The translations under genes were made by a program, and so were the position numbers. The notes beneath the pieces were generated by a model that worked only from the letters and a program-made list of their open reading frames with translations, made no database searches and was not told where the DNA came from. A DNA stretch of 9,391 nucleotides from Candidatus Omnitrophota bacterium (lineage in GTDB: Bacteria > Omnitrophota > Gorgyraeia > Duberdicusellales > 4484-171). The stretch is taken from positions 1 to 9,391 of the forward strand of contig JAIPGM010000015.1 of the NCBI GenBank assembly GCA_021735655.1. The letters are read 5' to 3'. Below, in pieces: positions 139 to 9,250 of this stretch. Each line of letters begins with the position of its first letter. Positions within the stretch are counted from its first letter, which is position 1.

Positions 139-1416
139 TTAAGCCAAAGATTCTCTTAATGCCTTATCGCCGATATCCTTTCGATAAAACATCTTGTCGA
201 ATTGAATATCATCTATTGCTTGGTAAGCCTTGATTTGAGCATCTTTTATCGTATCGCCCAAACCAACAACTCCTAAAACTCTTCCGCCGCTAGTTAGTAA
301 TTTCTGATTAAATTTCGTACCGGCGTGGAAAACAAAAACATCCTCTCTATTCTCTAGCTTCTCTAAACCGGTTATCTCTTTAAATTTCTCATAATTTCCC
401 GGATAGCCGCCGGAAGCTAAAACAACACAAAGACAAAAACGTTCATCCCACTCTAAATTTACCCCATTAAGTCTACCTTCAGCAGTTTTTAACATAATCT
501 CGAAAAGATCGCTCTTTAACTTAGGCAAAATTGCCTGAGTTTCCGGATCGCCGAATCTTACGTTGAATTCTAAAACTGAAATCTCCTCATCTTTAATCAT
601 TAAGCCAGCATAAAGAATACCCCTATAGGGTTTGCCTTCGGCTCTTAACCCATCAATTAAAGGTTTAAATACCTGATCAATAATCTTTTTTAAAAGTTGA
701 TCATTAACTAAAGGTGCCGGTGAATAAGCTCCCATACCTCCGGTGTTAGGACCTTTATCGCCGTCAAAAGCAGCCTTATGGTCCTGTGAAGACACTAAAG
801 GCAAGATGGTTTCACCATCACTAAATATTAAGATTGAAGCCTCTTGGCCCTTTAGGCAATCTTCAATAATTACTCTGTAGCCGGCTGAGCCAAACTTTCT
901 ATCAACCATAATCATATCAATTGCATCCTTGGCCTCATCTTGAGTTCTAGCTACAATAACTCCTTTTCCGGCAGCTAGGCCATCAGCCTTTATCACTATC
1001 GGTGCTCCTTTCCGATCTATATACTCTTTTGCTTTATCTGGACTATCAAAAACTTCAAAATCAGCAGTGGGAACTGAAAATTTACGCATCATTTCCTTAG
1101 AAAACACTTTGCTTCCTTCTAGACGAGCTAAGTCTTTTCTCGGACCAAATATCTTTAAACCCTGGCTTTCGAACTGATCAACTATACCCTTAACTAATGG
1201 CGCTTCCGGACCGACTACAGTTAAATCTATCTTTTCAGTCTTAGCAAACTTCAGGAGACTCTCAATATCAGTAGCTGAAATATCTAAATTCTCAGCAAGT
1301 AAAACAGTGCCACCATTGCCTGGCGCACAATAAAGTTTATCAACTAAAGCTGACTGGCTTAGCTTCCAAGCTAGGCAATGCTCGCGGCCGCCTGAACCAA
1401 TAACTAGCACCTTCAT
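139..1416 (-). CDS. purD: phosphoribosylamine--glycine ligase (GAR synthetase)
   Basis: 425-aa ORF. The N-terminus MKVLVIGSGGREHCLAWKL is the classic PurD glycine-rich loop plus the GGREH motif. The ATP-grasp body is present with the C-terminal PurD motifs GTKFNQ..LLTSGGRVLGV. The ATG start (1414-1416) overlaps the purM stop by 4 nt (ATGA), indicating translational coupling. Confidence 0.9.
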   Translation of the reverse strand: MKVLVIGSGGREHCLAWKLSQSALVDKLYCAPGNGGTVLLAENLDISATDIESLLKFAKTEKIDLTVVGPEAPLVKGIVDQFESQGLKIFGPRKDLARLEGSKVFSKEMMRKFSVPTADFEVFDSPDKAKEYIDRKGAPIVIKADGLAAGKGVIVARTQDEAKDAIDMIMVDRKFGSAGYRVIIEDCLKGQEASILIFSDGETILPLVSSQDHKAAFDGDKGPNTGGMGAYSPAPLVNDQLLKKIIDQVFKPLIDGLRAEGKPYRGILYAGLMIKDEEISVLEFNVRFGDPETQAILPKLKSDLFEIMLKTAEGRLNGVNLEWDERFCLCVVLASGGYPGNYEKFKEITGLEKLENREDVFVFHAGTKFNQKLLTSGGRVLGVVGLGDTIKDAQIKAYQAIDDIQFDKMFYRKDIGDKALRESLA

Positions 1417-2405
1417 CGTAACACCATTTTCTTAGAAGATTTAACTACCTGGCCAATGATCTCGGCTTTAACATATTTATTAAGCTGCCGCTTAAATTCT
1501 CGAGCATACTTTTTATCTACAGCTAAAATCATACCAATACCCATATTGAATACCGAGTACATCTCTTTTTCAGAAATTCCACCAGCCTTCTGAACTATTT
1601 TAAAGATCTCAGGAACTCTAAAACTATTTTTCTCGATCACCATACCTAAGCCTTTAGGTAAAATCTTAGTCGCCTTATTGTAAAAAGCTCCTCCGGTTAC
1701 ATGAGCAATACCTTTAATCGCTTTAAGCTGCGATTTATGGTTCTCAAGTAAAGAAAGGATCGGTTTTACATAGATACGTGTCGGAACCAATAACTTTTTA
1801 GCGTATTTTTTTATGCCTTTTGGACCTAAAGCTTTACGAACCAAGGAAAACCCGTTTGAATGAAAACCTGAAGACTCTAAACCAATCAAAAGATCACCGG
1901 CTTTAATATTTTTACAGTTAATCATCTTAGCCTTATCGACTATTCCTACGCAGAACCCGGCTAAATCATATTCCTGGCTTTTATACATCCCCGGCATCTC
2001 AGCAGTTTCACCGCCGAGTAAAAGACAATCCGACTCGCTTAAGCCTTGCTTGATGCCCAGCATAACCGCATCCAAAGTTGTGAGTTTTACCTTTCCGCAA
2101 GCAATATAATCCAAAAAGAAAAGCGGCCGAGCCCCGACACAAATTAAATCATTAACATTCATGGCAACCAAATCTACTCCGACCGTATTGTGAATTCCTA
2201 GCTTTTGAGCAATTATTAGCTTTGTGCCCACACCATCGGCTGAAGAAACTAAGTAAGGATTTTTGCATTTAGTCAAAGCTGAGGCTAAGGGAAAAACAGA
2301 GCCAAAGGCTTCGACCTTGCTTAAATTAGATAATTTAATCTTTTTAGCAAAAGCCTCGCCAATCTTTACATCTACGCCAGCTTGTTTATAGGTAACTTTT
2401 TTCAT
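1413..2405 (-). CDS. purM: phosphoribosylformylglycinamidine cyclo-ligase (AIR synthetase)
   Basis: 330-aa ORF. It carries the PurM family motifs YKQAGVDV, SADGVGTKL, VDLVAMNVNDLICVGARPLFFLDYIACGK, LLGGETAEMPGMY and HSNGFSLVRK. The ATG start (2403-2405) overlaps the purQ TAA stop by 1 nt (TAATG). Confidence 0.9.
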   Translation of the reverse strand: MKKVTYKQAGVDVKIGEAFAKKIKLSNLSKVEAFGSVFPLASALTKCKNPYLVSSADGVGTKLIIAQKLGIHNTVGVDLVAMNVNDLICVGARPLFFLDYIACGKVKLTTLDAVMLGIKQGLSESDCLLLGGETAEMPGMYKSQEYDLAGFCVGIVDKAKMINCKNIKAGDLLIGLESSGFHSNGFSLVRKALGPKGIKKYAKKLLVPTRIYVKPILSLLENHKSQLKAIKGIAHVTGGAFYNKATKILPKGLGMVIEKNSFRVPEIFKIVQKAGGISEKEMYSVFNMGIGMILAVDKKYAREFKRQLNKYVKAEIIGQVVKSSKKMVLR

Positions 2406-3157
2406 TATTTAAAGTAGTTAACTGCGTTTTTAAAAAATCCTAATCCTTGGGGGCTAATCTTTTTATCTTTCCAAAGCGGCCAATGATGCTCAAAAATAAA
2501 ACGTTCTGGATGCGGCATTAACCCCAGGACTCTTCCGCTAGAATCGCAAATTCCAGCTATTGCTTTAAGCGATCCATTAGGATTAAAAGGGTAGCTGGCC
2601 TCATCACCTTGGCTATCGACATAACGAAGAGCGATCTGATTGTTTAGTTCTATTTTATCTAAAATACTTGATTCTGCATAGAATTTTCCTTCTCCGTGAG
2701 CTATTGGCAGACGAATCACTTCATCTAAGCCCTTAAGCCAAACGCTTTCTGAGCTGACCCTTAGATAGACCCAACGATCTTCAAAACGATCAGAATCATT
2801 ATTAGTCAAAGTAACCTTTTGTTTAAAATCAATGTCCGGCAAAATACCGGTTTTTACCAGAACCTGAAATCCATTACAAATGCCTAAAATTAAGCCACCT
2901 TTATCAATGAAACCCTGCAAACTTTCCCTCAACCAGCAAAGAAATTCCAAAGAAAGAATTTTTCCAGCACCTAAATCATCACCGTAGCTAAACCCTCCAG
3001 GAATACAAAGTATCTGATAACTGGAAAGGTCTGGCTTCTCTTTAATATAATTTATATGAGCCAATTTAGTGTCCGCTCCGGCTAAATTAAAAGCAAATTC
3101 AGTCTCCTTGTCGCAGTTAATTCCGGCTGTGCGAATAATTAGAGTTTTTGGTTTCAT
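2405..3157 (-). CDS. purQ: phosphoribosylformylglycinamidine synthase, glutaminase subunit (PurQ, class I glutamine amidotransferase)
   Basis: 250-aa ORF. It aligns along its length with the known PurQ organisation: CIPGGFSYGDDLG, the nucleophile cysteine in LGICNGFQVL, PIAHGEGKFY, NNQIALRYVD, NPNGSLKAIAGI and the catalytic histidine in LMPHPER. It lies 11 nt downstream of the purL stop with no strong SD, so it is probably coupled. Confidence 0.87.
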   Translation of the reverse strand: MKPKTLIIRTAGINCDKETEFAFNLAGADTKLAHINYIKEKPDLSSYQILCIPGGFSYGDDLGAGKILSLEFLCWLRESLQGFIDKGGLILGICNGFQVLVKTGILPDIDFKQKVTLTNNDSDRFEDRWVYLRVSSESVWLKGLDEVIRLPIAHGEGKFYAESSILDKIELNNQIALRYVDSQGDEASYPFNPNGSLKAIAGICDSSGRVLGLMPHPERFIFEHHWPLWKDKKISPQGLGFFKNAVNYFK

Positions 3158-3168
3158 CTTTATTAAAT

Positions 3169-6057
3169 TTATCTAAATTCAGAGAATGTTCTCATCCAAC
3201 AATCTCTCAAAGTTTCTACCGGCTGATTAATAACTTCTTTACAGTCCTTGCTATAAACAATCAGCTTCTTCTTATCAGAAACACAACCGATTAAGCCAAA
3301 TGGGGAGTCGACCAAGGCTCGTTCAAATTCATTTTGATTTACCTTATTTACCTCAACAACAAACCGCGAAGCTGACTCAGAGAATAACAGCTCATAATCA
3401 AGCATGCTAGAGAGCTTAGGTACCTCTTCTAAGAACACATTTGCTCCCAAATCTGCCCCGATACACATCTCAGAAATTGCAACTGCCAAACCACCCTCAG
3501 AACAGTCATGGCAAGATTCAACTAACCCTTTTTCCATCGCTTGGCTAAGACGTTCAAATATACTTTTTGCACAAGCCTTGTCAACCTTAGGTACTAGGCC
3601 TTCGGTAATATTGTATTTTCGAAAATACTCTGAAGCTCCCATTTCCGGCTTGGTAAAACCGACTACATAAATAAGATTATCCTTGGCCTTAAAGTTATTA
3701 CTAATAACCTTCTGCCAATCAGAGATAATTGACATTGCTGAAATTAGCAAGGTTCCGGGGATCGAAATATGTTTTCCGGAAACATCATACTCATTATAAA
3801 GACTGTCTTTTCCGGAAATAAACGGTACGCCAAAGTAGGTTGAAAAATCATAACAAGCAACTGAGGCTCTGACTAAAGCTCCCAGCACCGATTCATCCTG
3901 CGGCGACCCCCAGCAGAAATTATCAAGAATGAAGGTTTTATCTAACTTTGCGCCACTAGAAACAACATTGCGTAAAGCTTCATCAATAGCTAAGGCCGCC
4001 ATCCAGTAAGGGTCAAGATCAGAATAAAAAGGATTAATCCCAAAACCAACGGCAACGCAAGACTTACTTTCTAAATCCGGCCGGCTAATTGCTGCATCAC
4101 TTACTGCAACCCGCGCAATACCGCTAACTGCTTTGTTAACTGATCCAGCCTGCACCTCATGATCATACTGTCTGACAATCCAATCCTTAGAAGCAATATT
4201 AGGAGTAGCTAACAAATCTCCGAGGTCATCGTTGTATGCATCTTTAGCTTCAATCTTTAAGTCGACTTGCTTTTTGTCTACCCAAGAAGCTTTCTTTTCT
4301 AGCTTAGGTAAATCAAAAATAAGCTCTAAATCGATGTCGCAAACTTTATTACTTTCATAAAAAAGCTCTAACTTCTGGGTTTCGGTAACTTCACCGACTA
4401 CGGTTAGCTCAACATCCTCTTCCTTAAAAATATCCTCTAACTCGGCTAGCTTATCACGACTTGTAAAAAATACCATCCGCTCTTGAGATTCAGATATCCA
4501 AATCTCAGTATAAGTTAAGCCGCGATACTTTAAAGGAACTTTATCAAGGTCAACTTTGACACCATGTTCCTGAGCTAATTCAGTTATTGCACTGGAAATA
4601 CCACCGGCTCCGCAATCAGTAATCGCAGAAAATAAATCCTTATCACGAGCCCTAAGAATAGCCTCGGTTAACTTTTTTTCTTCAATCGGATTGCCGACCT
4701 GAACAGCCGTAGTAAGACCTACTGTGTGTTCATCGAGCTCTTTAGATGAAAAAGTCGCCCCGTGGATTCCATCCCTTCCGGTTTTAGCCCCACAAAGAAT
4801 AACTAAATCGCCGGGCTTTGACTTTTTAAATGACTTCTCTTTAGGCAAAATGCCCAAAGTCCCGCAATAGACTAAAGGATTACCTAAAAATCTCTTATCG
4901 AACAAGACTGCTCCGCCAATCGTAGGGATTCCCATGCGATTTCCGTAGTCGCGCACACCCTTAATAACTCCTTTTATTATCCGTTTAGGATGAAGCAGAC
5001 CCTGTGGTACCTGATCATGCTTTAGGTCCCAGGGTGAAAAACAAAATATATCAACTGATGAAAAAGGCTTAGCCGCACAACCAGTTCCCAAGATATCTCT
5101 GATAACTCCGCCAATGCCAGTCGATGCACCACCGTAAGGCTCTAAACTTGAAGGGTGATTATGAGTTTCAACTTTAAAACAAATATTATTCTTCTTATCA
5201 AACTTAACTACTCCGGCATTATCTTCAAATACTGACACGCAATCCGGATGAGCGATCTCCTTAGTTGCCTTAAATACCGTTGACTTAAGTAAATTATTAA
5301 TTGTTTCTTGTTTTATTAGCTTTCCTTCTGAATCCTTTTGGCTGTATTCAATCAGGCCACGGAAAGTCTTGTGAGCGCAATGTTCCGACCAAAGCGTAGC
5401 AATAGTTTCAAGCTCACAATCGGTAGGATTACGTTTTAACTTTTGAAAGTAAGCCTGAATTATTTTCATCTCATCAAGACTCAAAGAAAGACAACCTTGC
5501 TTTGAAATCTCTTTTAATTTTTCATCACTAGCCTCCAATACCTCTACTGTCACAAGATTAAAGCTGTAGTCCTTACCTGAAAACTCATCAAGAGTAGCCA
5601 ATCTAGAACCCTGCTCATATTCTAAAATATGTTCAATAAGCGGATTATAAAGTAATTTTGAAGCAAGATACAATATTTGTTCTTTGGCTAAACCAACAAA
5701 TTCATAAAACCGGGCGCAACGAGCACTTTTTAGATTTAAAGACATATCGCTGACTGCCTTCTCAAGCGACAAAGCTACCGTATCGCAAACTCCGGGATTA
5801 TAAGTTATCAATATTTGATTATCTTCAGGTCGGTCTTCAAAAATACCACGAGTTATACTGTAGGCTTCAATAATCGGATCAATTAAAAGCTGGGTCGCAA
5901 TCATCTCAAGCTGACCTTGGCCTAGATCAGCCTCGAGAAGATAGACTTTACGAGTAAAAACTTGTGGGTTTAAAGCGATACCTAAATCGCTTATTTCGGA
6001 AGCGATCTTTGAAGAAGAAGCTTTTTCTTTTGAAAATACGTCTATTCTCCAAATCAT
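3169..6057 (-). CDS. purL: phosphoribosylformylglycinamidine synthase, synthetase subunit PurL with two N-terminal PurS-like repeats (PurS-PurS-PurL fusion)
   Basis: 962-aa ORF, about 200 aa longer than a stand-alone small PurL. The PurL core begins around residue 200 (DEMKIIQAYFQKLKRNPTDCELETIATLWSEHCAHK, matching the small-PurL N-terminus ...SEHCSYK). Further PurL/PurM-superfamily motifs follow: FKVETHNHPSSLEPYGGASTGIGGVIRD, YGNRMGIPTIGG and, in the second half, GFGINPFYSDLDPYWMAALAIDEALRNVVSSGA. Residues about 1-75 (RIDVFSK...SEISDLGI..VFTRKVYLLEADLG..LEMIATQLLIDPIIEAYSI) and about 80-160 (ILITYNPGVCDTVALSLEKAV..FYEFVGL..ILYLASKLLYNPLIEHILEY) each match the PurS pattern (beta strand, DPQG/xAVxxALxxLG, GKxxEL, LLANPVIEDY). 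Confidence 0.88.
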   Translation of the reverse strand: MIWRIDVFSKEKASSSKIASEISDLGIALNPQVFTRKVYLLEADLGQGQLEMIATQLLIDPIIEAYSITRGIFEDRPEDNQILITYNPGVCDTVALSLEKAVSDMSLNLKSARCARFYEFVGLAKEQILYLASKLLYNPLIEHILEYEQGSRLATLDEFSGKDYSFNLVTVEVLEASDEKLKEISKQGCLSLSLDEMKIIQAYFQKLKRNPTDCELETIATLWSEHCAHKTFRGLIEYSQKDSEGKLIKQETINNLLKSTVFKATKEIAHPDCVSVFEDNAGVVKFDKKNNICFKVETHNHPSSLEPYGGASTGIGGVIRDILGTGCAAKPFSSVDIFCFSPWDLKHDQVPQGLLHPKRIIKGVIKGVRDYGNRMGIPTIGGAVLFDKRFLGNPLVYCGTLGILPKEKSFKKSKPGDLVILCGAKTGRDGIHGATFSSKELDEHTVGLTTAVQVGNPIEEKKLTEAILRARDKDLFSAITDCGAGGISSAITELAQEHGVKVDLDKVPLKYRGLTYTEIWISESQERMVFFTSRDKLAELEDIFKEEDVELTVVGEVTETQKLELFYESNKVCDIDLELIFDLPKLEKKASWVDKKQVDLKIEAKDAYNDDLGDLLATPNIASKDWIVRQYDHEVQAGSVNKAVSGIARVAVSDAAISRPDLESKSCVAVGFGINPFYSDLDPYWMAALAIDEALRNVVSSGAKLDKTFILDNFCWGSPQDESVLGALVRASVACYDFSTYFGVPFISGKDSLYNEYDVSGKHISIPGTLLISAMSIISDWQKVISNNFKAKDNLIYVVGFTKPEMGASEYFRKYNITEGLVPKVDKACAKSIFERLSQAMEKGLVESCHDCSEGGLAVAISEMCIGADLGANVFLEEVPKLSSMLDYELLFSESASRFVVEVNKVNQNEFERALVDSPFGLIGCVSDKKKLIVYSKDCKEVINQPVETLRDCWMRTFSEFR

Positions 6058-6071
6058 TTGTCGGTGAATTT

Positions 6072-6088
6072 TTGCCTTATTCAGGCAA
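6072..6088 (-). other. intercistronic stem-loop (6-bp stem TTGCCT/AGGCAA, 5-nt loop) between purB stop and purSL start
   Basis: A perfect inverted repeat ttgccttattcaggcaa lies in the 72-nt purB-purL gap. On the minus-strand RNA the hairpin is followed by AAAAAUU, not a U-tract, so it is not a canonical terminator. It may be an mRNA stability or processing element. Confidence 0.3.
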
Positions 6089-6090
6089 GA

Positions 6091-6098
6091 TCAATTGA
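6091..6098. promoter_or_regulatory. 8-bp palindrome TCAATTGA upstream of purSL (copy 1 of 2)
   Basis: The same perfect palindrome occurs at 7501-7508, overlapping the -35 of the purB promoter candidate. Scanning by eye, I did not find it in the coding sequence. Confidence 0.25.
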
Positions 6099-6129
6099 AC
6101 GATTAAATGCGGATAGTAAAACTCGTTAG

Positions 6130-7425
6130 CTACGCCATTCCTACTCTTTCATAAATCTTATCTACATTCGAAAGGTAAGCATAAGGATTAAAAATTTCCT
6201 CAAGCTCTTTCTTAGTTAGAAGTTTCTTGACCTTCGAATTCAAAAAACTCTCCTTCTTAAAAGATGATTTTTTATTAATTACCTTTAAAGCAATACCTTG
6301 AACGATATCATAAGCTCTGATCCGCGGGATACCTTTGTCCATCAATTTAAGTAACAGTTTCTGAGAATAAACAATGCCACGGTTAAGCTCGATATTTTTA
6401 AGCATATTTTCAGAGTTAACCTTTAGATCACCAACCACCTGCTTAAACTTCTTAAGCATATAGTCTAGGGCTATCGTTGAATCGGGTAAAACAATTCTTT
6501 CGGATGATGAATGCGATATGTCCCGTTCATGCCAAAGATTAATATTCTCAGAGCCAACCAACATATTGGCCCGCAAAATTCTAGCTAAACCGCAGATTCG
6601 TTCACAAACAATCGGATTTTGCTTGTGCGGCATCGCGCTTGATCCTTTCTGTCCCTTATAAAACGGCTCTTTTACTTCATCAACTTCATTCCTATGCAAA
6701 TGTCTGACCTCGGTAGCGAATCTCTCTAGAGTTGAGCCAATCAAGGAAAGTAAAGATAAGTAGTAAGCGATTCTTTCCCGAGAAACAATCTGGGTTGATA
6801 TTAAAGCCGGCTTTATTTTAAGCTTTTTACAAATATACTCTTCAACCCTTAAATTAAAATGAGCAAAGGTTCCAACTGCTCCGGAAATCTTTCCACAAGC
6901 AACATAATCAAGACTATCAGCTAAAAGCTTTCTTTCCTCTCTTAAATCATTATAAAGATATAAAAACTTAAGACCAAAACTATAAACCTCAGCATGTACT
7001 CCATGAGTTCGAGCCATGCAAAGAGTATCTTTGTATTTAAGGGCTTTCTTCTTAACTTCAGCTAAAACCAAATCCAAATCTTTCAAGATAACTAAAGTTG
7101 CATCCTTTATCTGTGTGGCTAAAGTCGTATCAAGTAAATCTGATGAAGTCAAACCCAAATGCAAATATTGAGCATCTTTGCCAATTTGTTTAGATATATG
7201 TTTCAGGAAAGCTATAATATCGTGGTGGGTCTTCTCCTCGATCTTTTTAATTGCCAGGGTAGAAATCTTTACCTTTGAAAAGCTCTTACTGACACCTTTG
7301 GGGATCTTTTTTTGCTTCTCTAAAGCTTCACAAAGTAAGGCTTCAATCTTTAAAAAACGCTTAAATTTTTCATCCTCACTCCAAATATTACCAATTTCAG
7401 TCGGAGTATAACGCTTGATCATCAA
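6130..7425 (-). CDS. purB: adenylosuccinate lyase
   Basis: 431-aa ORF (430 aa if the ATG at 7420-7422 is the start). It has the fumarate-lyase superfamily signature GSSAMPHKQNP and the PurB-type N-terminus RYTPTEIGNIWSEDEKFKRFLKIEALLCEAL. The track start at 7423-7425 is TTG. The in-frame ATG one codon downstream is better spaced from the GAGGTG Shine-Dalgarno, so the true start is probably 7422. Confidence 0.9.
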   Translation of the reverse strand: MMIKRYTPTEIGNIWSEDEKFKRFLKIEALLCEALEKQKKIPKGVSKSFSKVKISTLAIKKIEEKTHHDIIAFLKHISKQIGKDAQYLHLGLTSSDLLDTTLATQIKDATLVILKDLDLVLAEVKKKALKYKDTLCMARTHGVHAEVYSFGLKFLYLYNDLREERKLLADSLDYVACGKISGAVGTFAHFNLRVEEYICKKLKIKPALISTQIVSRERIAYYLSLLSLIGSTLERFATEVRHLHRNEVDEVKEPFYKGQKGSSAMPHKQNPIVCERICGLARILRANMLVGSENINLWHERDISHSSSERIVLPDSTIALDYMLKKFKQVVGDLKVNSENMLKNIELNRGIVYSQKLLLKLMDKGIPRIRAYDIVQGIALKVINKKSSFKKESFLNSKVKKLLTKKELEEIFNPYAYLSNVDKIYERVGMA

Positions 7426-7427
7426 TC

Positions 7428-7433
7428 ACCTCT
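7428..7433 (-). promoter_or_regulatory. Shine-Dalgarno GAGGTG for purB
   Basis: The minus strand reads CTAGAGGTGATTGATGATCAAG. The spacing is appropriate to the ATG at 7420-7422 rather than to the TTG at 7423-7425. Confidence 0.5.
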
Positions 7434-7475
7434 AGATTTACTTAGCCTTAAAAACAACCCTTAACAAGAGGTAAT

Positions 7476-7504
7476 ATCTTACCAAACAATTCTTTTTGAG
7501 TCAA
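7476..7504 (-). promoter_or_regulatory. candidate sigma70-type promoter for purB with extended -10 (TTGACT-N17-TAAGAT, TG at -15/-14)
   Basis: The minus strand reads AATTCAATTGACTCAAAAAGAATTGTTTGGTAAGATATTACC. The -35 TTGACT is plus 7499-7504. A 17-nt spacer ends in TGG, giving the extended -10 TG. The -10 TAAGAT is plus 7476-7481, about 50 nt upstream of the purB start. It sits in the 127-nt gap after the secretin stop. Confidence 0.4.
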
Positions 7505-7508
7505 TTGA
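7501..7508. promoter_or_regulatory. 8-bp palindrome TCAATTGA overlapping purB -35 (copy 2 of 2)
   Basis: The minus strand reads AATTCAATTGACTC. The palindrome extends to 10/12 of ATTCAATTGAAT. It shares the core TCAATTGA with the copy at 6091-6098. Confidence 0.25.
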
Positions 7509-7552
7509 ATTAGCAAAAAAATCCTTAGAAACAAAGAACTAAATAAGCCTTG

Positions 7553-9250
7553 CTAGCTAAGGGTAATTGCTATATCGAAGGTAAGCGACCGACGCCGGAT
7601 GCCTTGAGGAAAATTCGGTAAAGGACTAGCCTGTACAATCTCCTCTCTGATCGTTCGGTCGATAAGTTGAGAACCAGAGGCACGAAGCATGCTAATATCG
7701 CTGATATAACCATCAGACCCAACGGTAATTCTAAAGAGAATGTTACGATTTATGGCTGATGAGCTAGATAAGCTCAAGATAAGATTGCGGAAACGAGAAG
7801 TATCAATAACGTCTCGAGCGTAAGCTACGTAACGATCAACCAGATATCTTTGATCACCGTATACATTTGAGCTTGATTCTACTCTGATATTCTGAGAATT
7901 AATGACCGAATCCCTCCGAGAGCGGTAGTTCTGGCTAGGTTGAGACTTCCTTTTGAAAAAACGATTTTGACCTTCCTCGATCGAGTCCGGATCAAACTCT
8001 TTAAACTTTTCACCTAAATTCGACAGGTGCGGAGTTATAAAAATTAATACCTCCTTATCTTCAGCAGTCCTATCCTTCGATTTAAAAAAATTACCCAAAA
8101 AAGGAACGTGACTTAACATCGGGGCTCTGGTTTTGGTTTGACTTGAGTTGTGTTGGATAAGCCCTCCGATACCAATAGTGTCACCATCAAAAACCCTCAC
8201 GGTAGTAGACACTGTCCGTCGGTTTACTATCGGTAAATTAGCGCTACTGGTTCCGACAACTTCACTTACTTCCGGCTGAATTTTTACAGTAATTGCCCCG
8301 CTTGAAGAAACACTAGGGGTAACTTTTAGGGTAACTCCAGTACCAATTGATTGAAGAGTATTGTAAGGGTAGGCTTGAGAACCGGTATTAATTAAGAAAA
8401 ACTCCTCTTTGCCAATAAATATATTTGCCTCTTCTCCGTCTAAGGCTGAAATCCGCGGGTTAGCCCTTACCACTGCTTTTCCGGTCTGAATCATGGTTTT
8501 TAAGGTAATTAGAGTGCTCTGGGTAACTGTTCCGGAAAGAGTATATTCAGCAGTTGTCGCAGACCCCAAACCCTTCTCAAGAGTAAAGTTTGACGGCGGA
8601 CTAACCGTAAAACCACCCTCCTGCATACTACCCCACTTAACGCCCAGCTCTTTTTTATCCGATTCTGATATTTCAATAACTAAAGCTTCCATCATAACCT
8701 GTTGACGAGGTTGATCGATCTTATTAATATCCTGCCTGAAGCGAGCAATAATATTCAACGGGGCAGTAATTGTTACTGAATTATTTTGTAAATTAGCCTT
8801 AATGTAAGGATGAAAAAAGTCAGACACTAAAGACTCTACATCCTTGGCCTTGACATAATCCAAAGCTATAACCTCGGTTTTGGCTAAAAGGTCAAACACT
8901 GGGCTCTCCGGTTTAGCTAAGCCAACAATGTAATACTTATCTATCTTTTTAAAGTTATAGCCCAAAGGAATCAGAATCATACTCAAAGCTTCCTCTAGGG
9001 GTACATTTTCAAGTTCAACGTTAATAAAACCCTGGACCGAAGGATCAATAACAATCGGCACCTTGGTTTGAGCTGAAACGTCTTGAAGAGCCTGGCGAAC
9101 ATCAGTCTCATAAAATACATTATTTACCAAGGGCTCAACTGATTCAGCATCCAGGTAGCTTGCAAAAAAATCATCTGACGAATAAGCCGCCAGCGACACA
9201 AAAAACAATCCGGCCAAAAGAACAACACAAATTTCTTTTTTTAGTTTCAT
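7553..9250 (-). CDS. outer-membrane secretin (GspD/PilQ family) with N-terminal STN/N0 domain and a C-terminal TonB-C-like extension
   Basis: 565-aa ORF with a cleavable signal peptide (MKLKKEICVVLLAGLFFVSLAAYSS). An STN/N0 domain spans about residues 43-110 (DVRQALQDVSAQTKVPIVIDP...VPLEEALSMILIPLGYNFKKIDKYYIVG). One secretin N-domain follows (QQVMMEALVIEISESDKKELGVKW). The canonical secretin core is present: VVRANPRISALDGEEANIFIGKEEFF ... RVFDGDTIGIGGLI ... APMLSHVPFLGNFFKSK...KEVLIFITPHL. The last 100 aa or so (NILFRITVGSDGYISDISMLRASGSQLIDRTIREEIVQASPLPNFPQG...SLTFDIAITL) match the TonB C-terminal domain pattern. A Shine-Dalgarno AGGAGA sits 5 nt upstream of the ATG. Confidence 0.8.
   Translation of the reverse strand: MKLKKEICVVLLAGLFFVSLAAYSSDDFFASYLDAESVEPLVNNVFYETDVRQALQDVSAQTKVPIVIDPSVQGFINVELENVPLEEALSMILIPLGYNFKKIDKYYIVGLAKPESPVFDLLAKTEVIALDYVKAKDVESLVSDFFHPYIKANLQNNSVTITAPLNIIARFRQDINKIDQPRQQVMMEALVIEISESDKKELGVKWGSMQEGGFTVSPPSNFTLEKGLGSATTAEYTLSGTVTQSTLITLKTMIQTGKAVVRANPRISALDGEEANIFIGKEEFFLINTGSQAYPYNTLQSIGTGVTLKVTPSVSSSGAITVKIQPEVSEVVGTSSANLPIVNRRTVSTTVRVFDGDTIGIGGLIQHNSSQTKTRAPMLSHVPFLGNFFKSKDRTAEDKEVLIFITPHLSNLGEKFKEFDPDSIEEGQNRFFKRKSQPSQNYRSRRDSVINSQNIRVESSSNVYGDQRYLVDRYVAYARDVIDTSRFRNLILSLSSSSAINRNILFRITVGSDGYISDISMLRASGSQLIDRTIREEIVQASPLPNFPQGIRRRSLTFDIAITLS

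Follow-up and report, generated by a model that had tools for sequence, protein, structure and literature searches.

A short secretin with a predicted TonB/TolA-type C-terminal domain in Omnitrophota

The window analysed here is a complete 9,391-bp metagenomic contig assigned to Candidatus Omnitrophota (JAIPGM010000015.1), and the gene nearest its end encodes a secretin that carries, past the secretin core, a domain predicted to be of the TonB/TolA type. An earlier note, made from the letters of the window without database searches, had described this protein as a secretin with a signal peptide, an STN/N0 domain, an N-domain and the core, fused to such a domain. The secretin part of that description was borne out by Pfam, in which Secretin (PF00263) matched at 142.3 bits (E 1.4e-41, cut-off 27.5) and Secretin_N likewise exceeded its cut-off (Table 1). 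The putative signal peptide, read from the sequence by eye, has a basic n-region, a hydrophobic core and small residues preceding the likely cleavage site, with no lipobox seen. The STN/N0 assignment held in part: both relevant Pfam families fell slightly under their cut-offs in the window protein (STN, 26.2 bits versus 28.4; type_II_gspD_N0, 22.5 versus 27), but STN (PF07660) is listed in the precomputed annotations of orthologues. This region is strongly conserved across the orthologue alignment A1, and the core contributes many invariant columns to the same alignment. The gene has an ATG start with an AGGAG sequence 7 nt 5' of it, and its product extends 156 residues beyond the end of the core.

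Several searches agree on the nature of this tail. Pfam TonB_2 (PF13103) matched residues 501-557 of the whole protein at 29.9 bits (E 6e-7, cut-off 22) and rose to 32.1 bits when the tail was scanned alone. The NCBIfam model tonB_Cterm (TIGR01352) reached 22.1 bits, under its cut-off of 27.1, and TolA domain III (PF06519) gave no match at E up to 10 in scans of the protein or the tail. A profile built from 13 orthologous tails (A2) and run against all PDB sequences matched solely the C-terminal domains of TonB-family proteins, with E values of 3.7e-6 for HasB, 3.8e-5 for Helicobacter pylori TonB and ~6e-3 for TolA; TonB and TolA of Pseudomonas aeruginosa and Escherichia coli were weaker matches. 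The tails share the invariant motif SG...D ... P.P..P, and in the profile alignment the tail sequence '...SSGs.liD..i..ai.kaSPLPkfP' stands opposite '...SAGLPSLDREIQALVKRASPLPTPP' of HasB.

The predicted structure points the same way. An AlphaFold2 (AF2) model of the tail, made with the A2 alignment of orthologous tails, had predicted local distance difference test (pLDDT) values of 38-52 over tail residues 1-53 and of 88-94 over tail residues 54-156, the latter forming two helices followed by a beta-beta-alpha-beta arrangement (residues 463-565) that is longer than the Pfam match. In a Foldseek search of this model against the PDB, the top 16 matches were all C-terminal domains of TonB, HasB, TolA or FusB (probability 0.85-1.0; template modelling (TM) score up to 0.61, target-normalised), the best being HasB (2m2k), H. 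pylori TonB (5lw8/6sly) and P. aeruginosa TolA (1lr0). The matched folds include complexes, with a TolB peptide in 6s3w and with transporters in 2gsk and 6i97. Pfam, profile and predicted fold thus concur that the window protein is a secretin with a genuine, if modelled, TonB/TolA-type C-terminal domain. The earlier note had made this claim for the last ~100 residues; the hidden Markov model (HMM) search and the fold comparison both uphold it, and its approximate limits for the linker (~7859-8020) and domain (~7556-7858) agree with those in Table 1.

Table 1. Features of the window, with residue numbers for the fusion protein and positions counted from the first nucleotide of the window
Feature	Residues	Position	Strand	Basis
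Secretin-TonB_C fusion gene	565 aa + stop	7553..9250 (stop codon 7553-7555)	-	Open reading frame listing
Putative signal peptide (MKLKKEICVVLLAGLFFVSLAAYS)	~1-24	9179..9250	-	Read from sequence, no predictor
Probable N0/STN domain	~46-110	8921..9115	-	Pfam sub-threshold + orthologue annotation
N1-type ring domain (Secretin_N)	125-184	8699..8878	-	PF03958, 34.1 bits, cut-off 28.2
Secretin core, ending ...VLIFITPHL	253-409	8024..8494	-	PF00263
Predicted disordered linker (53 residues)	410-462	7865..8023	-	AF2 pLDDT 38-52
Predicted TonB/TolA-type C-terminal domain	463-565	7556..7864	-	Pfam TonB_2, PDB profile search, AF2, Foldseek
purB		6130-7425	-	
purS-purL fusion	962 aa	3169-6057	-	
purQ		2405-3157	-	
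purM		1413-2405	-	
purD		139-1416	-	

A fusion of this kind could arise artificially, through a frameshift or assembly error that joined a secretin to a TonB-like gene (the earlier note named 7850-8050 as the region to inspect for this), or the protein could simply be a TonB. The window consists of one short metagenomic contig, and the NCBI and JGI pipelines name several orthologues 'TonB family protein'. However, the fusion recurs as one uninterrupted open reading frame in independent assemblies. The public collection contains an identical protein (P0001, from Ca. Omnitrophica, which NCBI calls 'TonB C-terminal domain-containing protein [Candidatus Omnitrophica bacterium]') and 12 further 90%-identity clusters that combine Secretin with PF13103 at 37-72% identity. 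This architecture gained a further representative (P0215) from an exhaustive HMM search, and the genome loci add L010 and L021. At least 15 distinct orthologues (35-72% identity) therefore keep one reading frame, every named one of them from Omnitrophota, and they align in register across the tail, with linker insertions and deletions that preserve the frame. Looking for the reverse event, fission, we found no separate TonB-like gene after the secretins of tail-less relatives. A frameshift or chimera was rejected because the orthologues keep the open reading frame and the tail-less relatives lack a separate TonB-like gene; the N-terminus, a signal peptide followed by a secretin, is not a TonB membrane anchor. 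The probability of an artefact or of a true TonB is accordingly negligible. The label 'TonB family protein' is misleading, as these proteins are secretins and not TonB proteins.

To place the tail phylogenetically, we drew on a search of 185,579 species-representative genomes that yielded 80 species-level loci. Only five of them (L008, L009, L010, L011 and L021) encode the tail, all from Omnitrophota. In Zixibacteria, Ignavibacteria and related groups the protein stops 2-12 residues after the core, and members from Planctomycetota have tails of 27-136 residues without a match to the TonB_C tail profile; a Pfam scan of the L048 protein from Planctomycetota also returned no TonB match. Within the secretin family surveyed, the 126-160-residue TonB_C tail is confined to Omnitrophota. 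In a rough neighbour-joining tree of the secretin core (100 bootstraps), the tail-bearing sequences form two adjoining clades, one comprising P0001-P0010 (clade A, 100/100 bootstraps) and the other L010, L021, P0011, P0014 and P0015 (clade B). Two tail-less proteins, P0013 and P0012, interleave with these clades, each retaining a stub of ~30-35 residues after the core, and strict monophyly of the tail-bearing set was rejected (0/100). On this sequence tree, the tail may have been gained once and then truncated in some lineages, or gained twice.

Two further observations concern the shape of these genes. The Planctomycetota loci L048 (6953-8572), L045, L046, L049, L053, L054 and L060 encode a different, non-TonB-like C-terminal tail of 97-136 residues, and their secretins are flanked on both sides by extra small 'f1' proteins ending in 'YSATQTLTxxW', with a ~450-residue coiled-coil protein downstream. 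In L023 (4961-7236) and L026 (201-2487), the core match covers ~2.3 kb, divided between two neighbouring secretin-like reading frames, which could reflect duplication, insertion or a frameshift.

The secretin itself does not belong to the well-characterised classes. All NCBIfam secretin equivalogs scored far below their cut-offs on the window protein, including GspD (TIGR02517, 192.5 bits versus 351.35) and PilQ (TIGR02515, 161.8 bits versus 284.35) as well as MshL, HofQ and SctC. The protein has one Secretin_N domain alone, compared with the N0-N1-N2-N3 series of GspD, and Pfam and NCBIfam scans of it found no S-domain or pilotin family; the tail is not a characterised S-domain, which agrees with the earlier note. 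Identity with GspD of type II secretion systems (T2SS) was rejected on the score, the single Secretin_N, the missing S-domain and the lack of gspC-M genes nearby, and identity with the type IVa PilQ on its score and the lack of pilMNOP genes by the fusion loci. With every equivalog below its cut-off, the label 'GspD/PilQ-type' holds no more than loosely. Neither is the protein a TonB: the C-terminal domain is present, but a signal peptide and 400 residues of secretin replace the inner-membrane anchor, and the linker has 0-4 prolines. TolA identity fails on the absence of PF06519, the weak profile matches (E ~6e-3) and the lack of a membrane anchor and helical domain II. By its predicted domain content, the protein is a short secretin (signal peptide, N0/STN, one N1 domain and core) of a widespread family found in at least five phyla.

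The linker between core and tail domain varies considerably. Across orthologues it measures 24-58 residues with an isoelectric point (pI) of 4.2-10.7; in the window protein it is rich in Ser, Gln, Asn and Arg, includes two prolines and has a pI of 9.4. The basic, Ser/Arg/Gln-rich character proposed earlier therefore describes the window protein but was rejected as a conserved feature, given the spread of pI. Within this segment, an 'xFFxR' motif lies ~20 residues past the core in 9 of 10 clade-A proteins, the window protein included. In the form 'x(R/T)FFxR', at residues ~430-436 and in orthologues P0003-P0008, it stands out from a surrounding linker that is variable and disordered, and it could be a candidate linear binding motif.

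We found the same type of domain on many other proteins. The tail profile produced 12,051 matches at E < 1e-3 among 1.84 billion representatives, and from the top 150 the 20 longest candidates were scanned against Pfam. The closest domains on architectures other than TonB came from P0123, P0132, P0144, P0156, P0192, P0210, P0122 and P0126. P0265 is a secretin of the CpaC/RcpA type with 1045 residues, a T2SS-T3SS_pil_N N-terminus and two C-terminal TonB_C domains, represented by six cluster members; its locus (L088, gene at 2584-5721) is classically Tad-type, with RcpC, the secretin, a CpaE/F-like ATPase and then PilM/PilO-like genes. A second STN-type secretin closes that locus. P0123, a TolC-like OEP protein of the outer membrane, has three TonB_C domains, and other close carriers of TonB_C or TonB_2 are fusions to TPR or to Peptidase_M10, or pure tandem arrays of 3-8 TonB_C domains, including P0124 (Omnitrophota) and P0126 (KSB1). 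Because it is fused to a short secretin, a Tad secretin, a TolC-like channel, TPR repeats, a protease and arrays of itself, the TonB_C-like fold is a promiscuous periplasmic module in these lineages, joined at least three times to outer-membrane channels. Extra modules also occur on other secretins in the homologue list (P0036, P0046, P0050, P0044, P0041, P0062 and P0102), among them LysM (P0036, P0046, P0050), AMIN PF11741 (P0044), PF16344 and TPR, and shuffling of accessory domains on secretins seems common outside model organisms.

Turning to the genomic context, a purine operon lies directly downstream of the secretin on the minus strand (window 139-7425; Table 1), with stop and start codons overlapping at purQ/purM and purM/purD, and the order secretin-purB-purL-purQ-purM is common to the window and the orthologous locus L004. 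Promoter and terminator scans gave no signal above shuffled expectation. The contig ends 141 nt upstream of the fusion gene, a stretch with stops in all frames, and the upstream context was therefore taken from orthologous contigs. There, in L001, L002/L003 and L004, two genes precede the fusion secretin: directly upstream, with overlapping start and stop codons, a 411-412-residue signal-peptide protein without a solid Pfam match, and before it a signal-peptide protein of 160-200 residues with zero matches. In ~50 of the 80 genome loci, a homologue (406-585 residues) of the protein directly upstream, which is immunoglobulin (Ig)-like, adjoins the secretin, nearly always directly upstream, and most of these loci also have 1-3 small secreted beta-rich proteins nearby. 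Such cassettes occur in Omnitrophota, Zixibacteria, Ignavibacteria, Planctomycetota, Armatimonadota and others. A pilM-N-O-P-Q-like order, judged from gene size and order rather than from family scans, is confined to the most distant loci, L072-L087.

Machinery of known secretin systems was missing from these neighbourhoods. Within 10 kb on either side in L001, L002 and L004 we found no MotA_ExbB, ExbD, TolQ or TolR, and the same fusion loci showed no tolB or pal nearby, no adjacent secretion ATPase and no pilMNOP; gspC-M was absent from these loci and from the survey of 80, and the cassette showed no gene for a pilotin-like lipoprotein. The earlier suggestions of an inner-membrane energising partner (ExbBD/TolQR-like), or of pilMNOP or gspC-like neighbours, thus find no support beside any orthologue examined.

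The model of the Ig-like protein (pLDDT 84.8; predicted TM score (pTM) 0.75) shows three beta-sandwich domains and lacks a membrane helix at the C-terminus. A structure search matched a PapD-like two-domain arrangement within it to WxLIP and to CfaA/FimC/PapD/CsuC, consistent with a marginal Pfam match to WxLIP_PGBD, and a word-indexed homology search returned eight relatives. WxLIP has been proposed to hold small WxL proteins through beta-hairpin insertion (PMC10599100). The small cassette proteins fall into two families that are probably related (hhalign probability 73%, E 3e-5) and share a C-terminal 'Y..t.tlT' strand; they had no significant match in Pfam, NCBIfam or PDB sequences, and their assignment as WxL, SCPU or fimbrial subunits was unsupported, a Fimbrial match at E 0.44 being the sole hint. 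The secretin belongs to a widespread, undescribed cassette that, by structural analogy, looks more like chaperone-usher or WxL systems, the secretin taking the usher's place, than like T2SS or a type IV pilus. One Omnitrophota locus, L021, encodes a fusion secretin (6953-8596) without the small and Ig-like genes directly upstream, so the tail is not strictly dependent on those neighbours. Its outer synteny is that of L011, with an HhH-GPD gene, an Omp85/Peptidase_M1 gene and an M20 peptidase.

What might the tail do? Secretins are assemblies of ~12-15 subunits, and the chain leaves the last strand of the core on the outer face of the barrel, at its periplasmic end. Transferring this geometry from other secretin structures, each of the ~12-15 protomers would dangle one TonB_C-like domain into the periplasm on a flexible tether of 24-58 residues. 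In solved structures, the C-terminal domains of TonB, HasB and TolA hold their partners through a beta-strand that pairs with a short, exposed stretch of peptide, such as the TonB box (2gsk, 6i97) or the N-terminus of TolB (6s3w). The tail may capture a peptide strand in the same manner and would thereby attach the channel to, or position it at, a partner in the periplasm or envelope. By this analogy, we consider it about an even chance (probability of roughly 0.5) that the tail is a tethered docking or anchoring module for the channel, a role that we propose to be comparable to those of AMIN and LysM modules or of S-domain/pilotin pairs. A generic envelope partner is preferred over a cargo-specific one because the fold has been fused convergently to unrelated secretins and a TolC-like channel. 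Since it lacks a membrane anchor and a proline-rich rod, and ExbBD/TolQR genes are missing from its neighbourhood, the tail is predicted to be unable to transduce energy as TonB does.

Several points weigh against a docking role. The tail is dispensable family-wide, most members being without it. The absence of Ig-like and small genes from L021 means that the partner need not be encoded by the cassette. The strand expected to capture the partner is not conserved in sequence, which is expected for main-chain pairing and hence uninformative, and the placement of the C-terminus relative to the barrel is carried over from other secretins. A peptidoglycan-binding or self-stabilising role would also fit the same data.

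Of these alternatives, direct binding of the cell wall by the TonB_C-like domain, with or without the linker, is unlikely. It would staple the secretin to peptidoglycan, and the tail would do at the C-terminus what the AMIN domains of PilQ, or LysM modules, do in other secretins. LysM and AMIN modules on other listed secretins favour such an anchor, and the convergent fusion to three different outer-membrane channels suits a generic one; according to an older claim, the C-terminus of TonB binds murein. AMIN domains are required for the recruitment and assembly of PilQ (PMC10653833). However, a review names ExbD as the peptidoglycan binder of the Ton system and attributes no such binding to the C-terminal domain of TonB, no peptidoglycan-binding family was matched in Pfam scans of the protein and the tail, and the charge of the linker is not conserved. 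The tail might otherwise be a built-in assembly aid that replaces the S-domain and its pilotin, binding the neighbouring protomer or its own N-terminal region and thereby promoting or stabilising the multimer or its targeting to the outer membrane. Its position is that of the S-domain of T2SS and type III secretion system (T3SS) secretins, which are normally pilotin-dependent (PMC3276575), and the lack of a pilotin-like gene and the recurrent 'xFFxR' motif fit this idea as well. We nevertheless find this role quite improbable, since tail-less relatives with nearly identical cores evidently assemble, a disordered linker of 24-58 residues would be needless for packing on an adjacent barrel, and no precedent is known for a TonB_C fold that stabilises a secretin.

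There is a slim chance that the tail links the channel to a Ton or Tol motor driven by the proton motive force (PMF), or to TolB-Pal, encoded elsewhere in the genome; such coupling would serve to gate or drive export, or to direct the channel to sites of division. The tail motif 'SG..D...SPLP.(F)P' is TolA/HasB-like, the TolA C-terminal domain binds the N-terminus of TolB (PDB 6s3w), and a cassette without an ATPase leaves room for another energy source. Against this, exbBD, tolQR, tolB and pal were all missing near the fusion loci (the flanks of L001, L002 and L004), and a domain on the outer-membrane side without an inner-membrane anchor cannot itself pass on motor force. The suggestion that the protein carries TonB-system modules at both ends reflects a common name, STN being the ordinary N0 domain of secretins. 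Combining tail and cassette, one can picture an ATPase-less 'chaperone-secretin' path in which small beta-rich subunits are held by the PapD/WxLIP-like protein and exit through the minimal secretin rather than an usher, the Omnitrophota tail connecting it to Tol-Pal or Ton for positioning at division sites or PMF-dependent gating. This picture, which spans Omnitrophota, Planctomycetota, Zixibacteria, Ignavibacteria and Armatimonadota, is speculative and improbable as a whole; if true, it would be the first secretin wired directly to the Ton/Tol system.

Secretins serve as the shared gate in the outer membrane for type II and III secretion, for type IV and Tad pili, for competence and for the export of filamentous phage, and the way in which they are positioned, anchored or stabilised varies by system, through pilotins, AMIN, LysM or TsaP. 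A conserved TonB/TolA-type tail would add a structurally distinct way of doing so. The domain turns up independently on a Tad secretin and also on a TolC-like channel, which points to a general means of attaching such channels to the envelope in phyla that have been little studied. A widespread secretin cassette with a PapD/WxLIP-like partner has also come to light, and it may be the more novel object of the two. Full-text literature searches brought up no account of a secretin with a TonB_C tail or of Omnitrophota secretins, and no secretin linked to DUF916/WxLIP-like proteins; in the one paper that had both terms, it was through the name of the STN domain only. The statement that no such secretin has been described thus holds for that literature, although databases already annotate the TonB domain. 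The tail is a real and conserved accessory domain on a secretin, undescribed in the literature searched, of narrow taxonomic range and with a plausible putative function.

Compared with known systems, the tail domain shares with the C-terminal domains of TonB, HasB and TolA (PF13103, PF03544) the beta-beta-alpha-beta arrangement after helices, together with the motifs SG..D and SPLP.P. There, the domain ends an inner-membrane-anchored, periplasm-spanning protein driven by ExbBD or TolQR, whereas in the fusion secretin a short, non-proline linker would suspend it from a channel of the outer membrane, and motor genes are missing nearby. Like the S-domain of GspD/PulD and InvG, it is a C-terminal appendage past the secretin core; the S-domain, however, is a short helical stretch to which a lipoprotein pilotin binds, and the tail is a predicted TonB-type globular domain of ~100 residues on a disordered linker. 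It also resembles the AMIN (PilQ) and LysM fusions in being an accessory module fused to a secretin, envelope-binding in those cases and putatively so here. In the Pfam listing, LysM and AMIN modules precede Secretin_N and Secretin, whereas the TonB-type tail is C-terminal and has a fold best known for capturing peptide strands. The AMIN domains, which are N-terminal and bind peptidoglycan, recruit PilQ via septal peptidoglycan (PMC10653833). The Tad-type (CpaC/RcpA) secretin P0265 is likewise a C-terminal secretin-TonB_C fusion, though an independent one, in another secretin subfamily, with two such domains on 1045 residues and an ATPase in its locus. The cassette, for its part, resembles chaperone-usher pili and Gram-positive WxL/WxLIP clusters in the PapD-like two-domain arrangement of its conserved upstream protein, its small secreted beta-rich proteins and its lack of an ATPase. 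It differs from them in that a secretin stands in the place of the usher, no usher being called in L001, L002 or L004; it also has no WxL domain match, no C-terminal membrane helix and a third Ig domain, and its small proteins match no known family.

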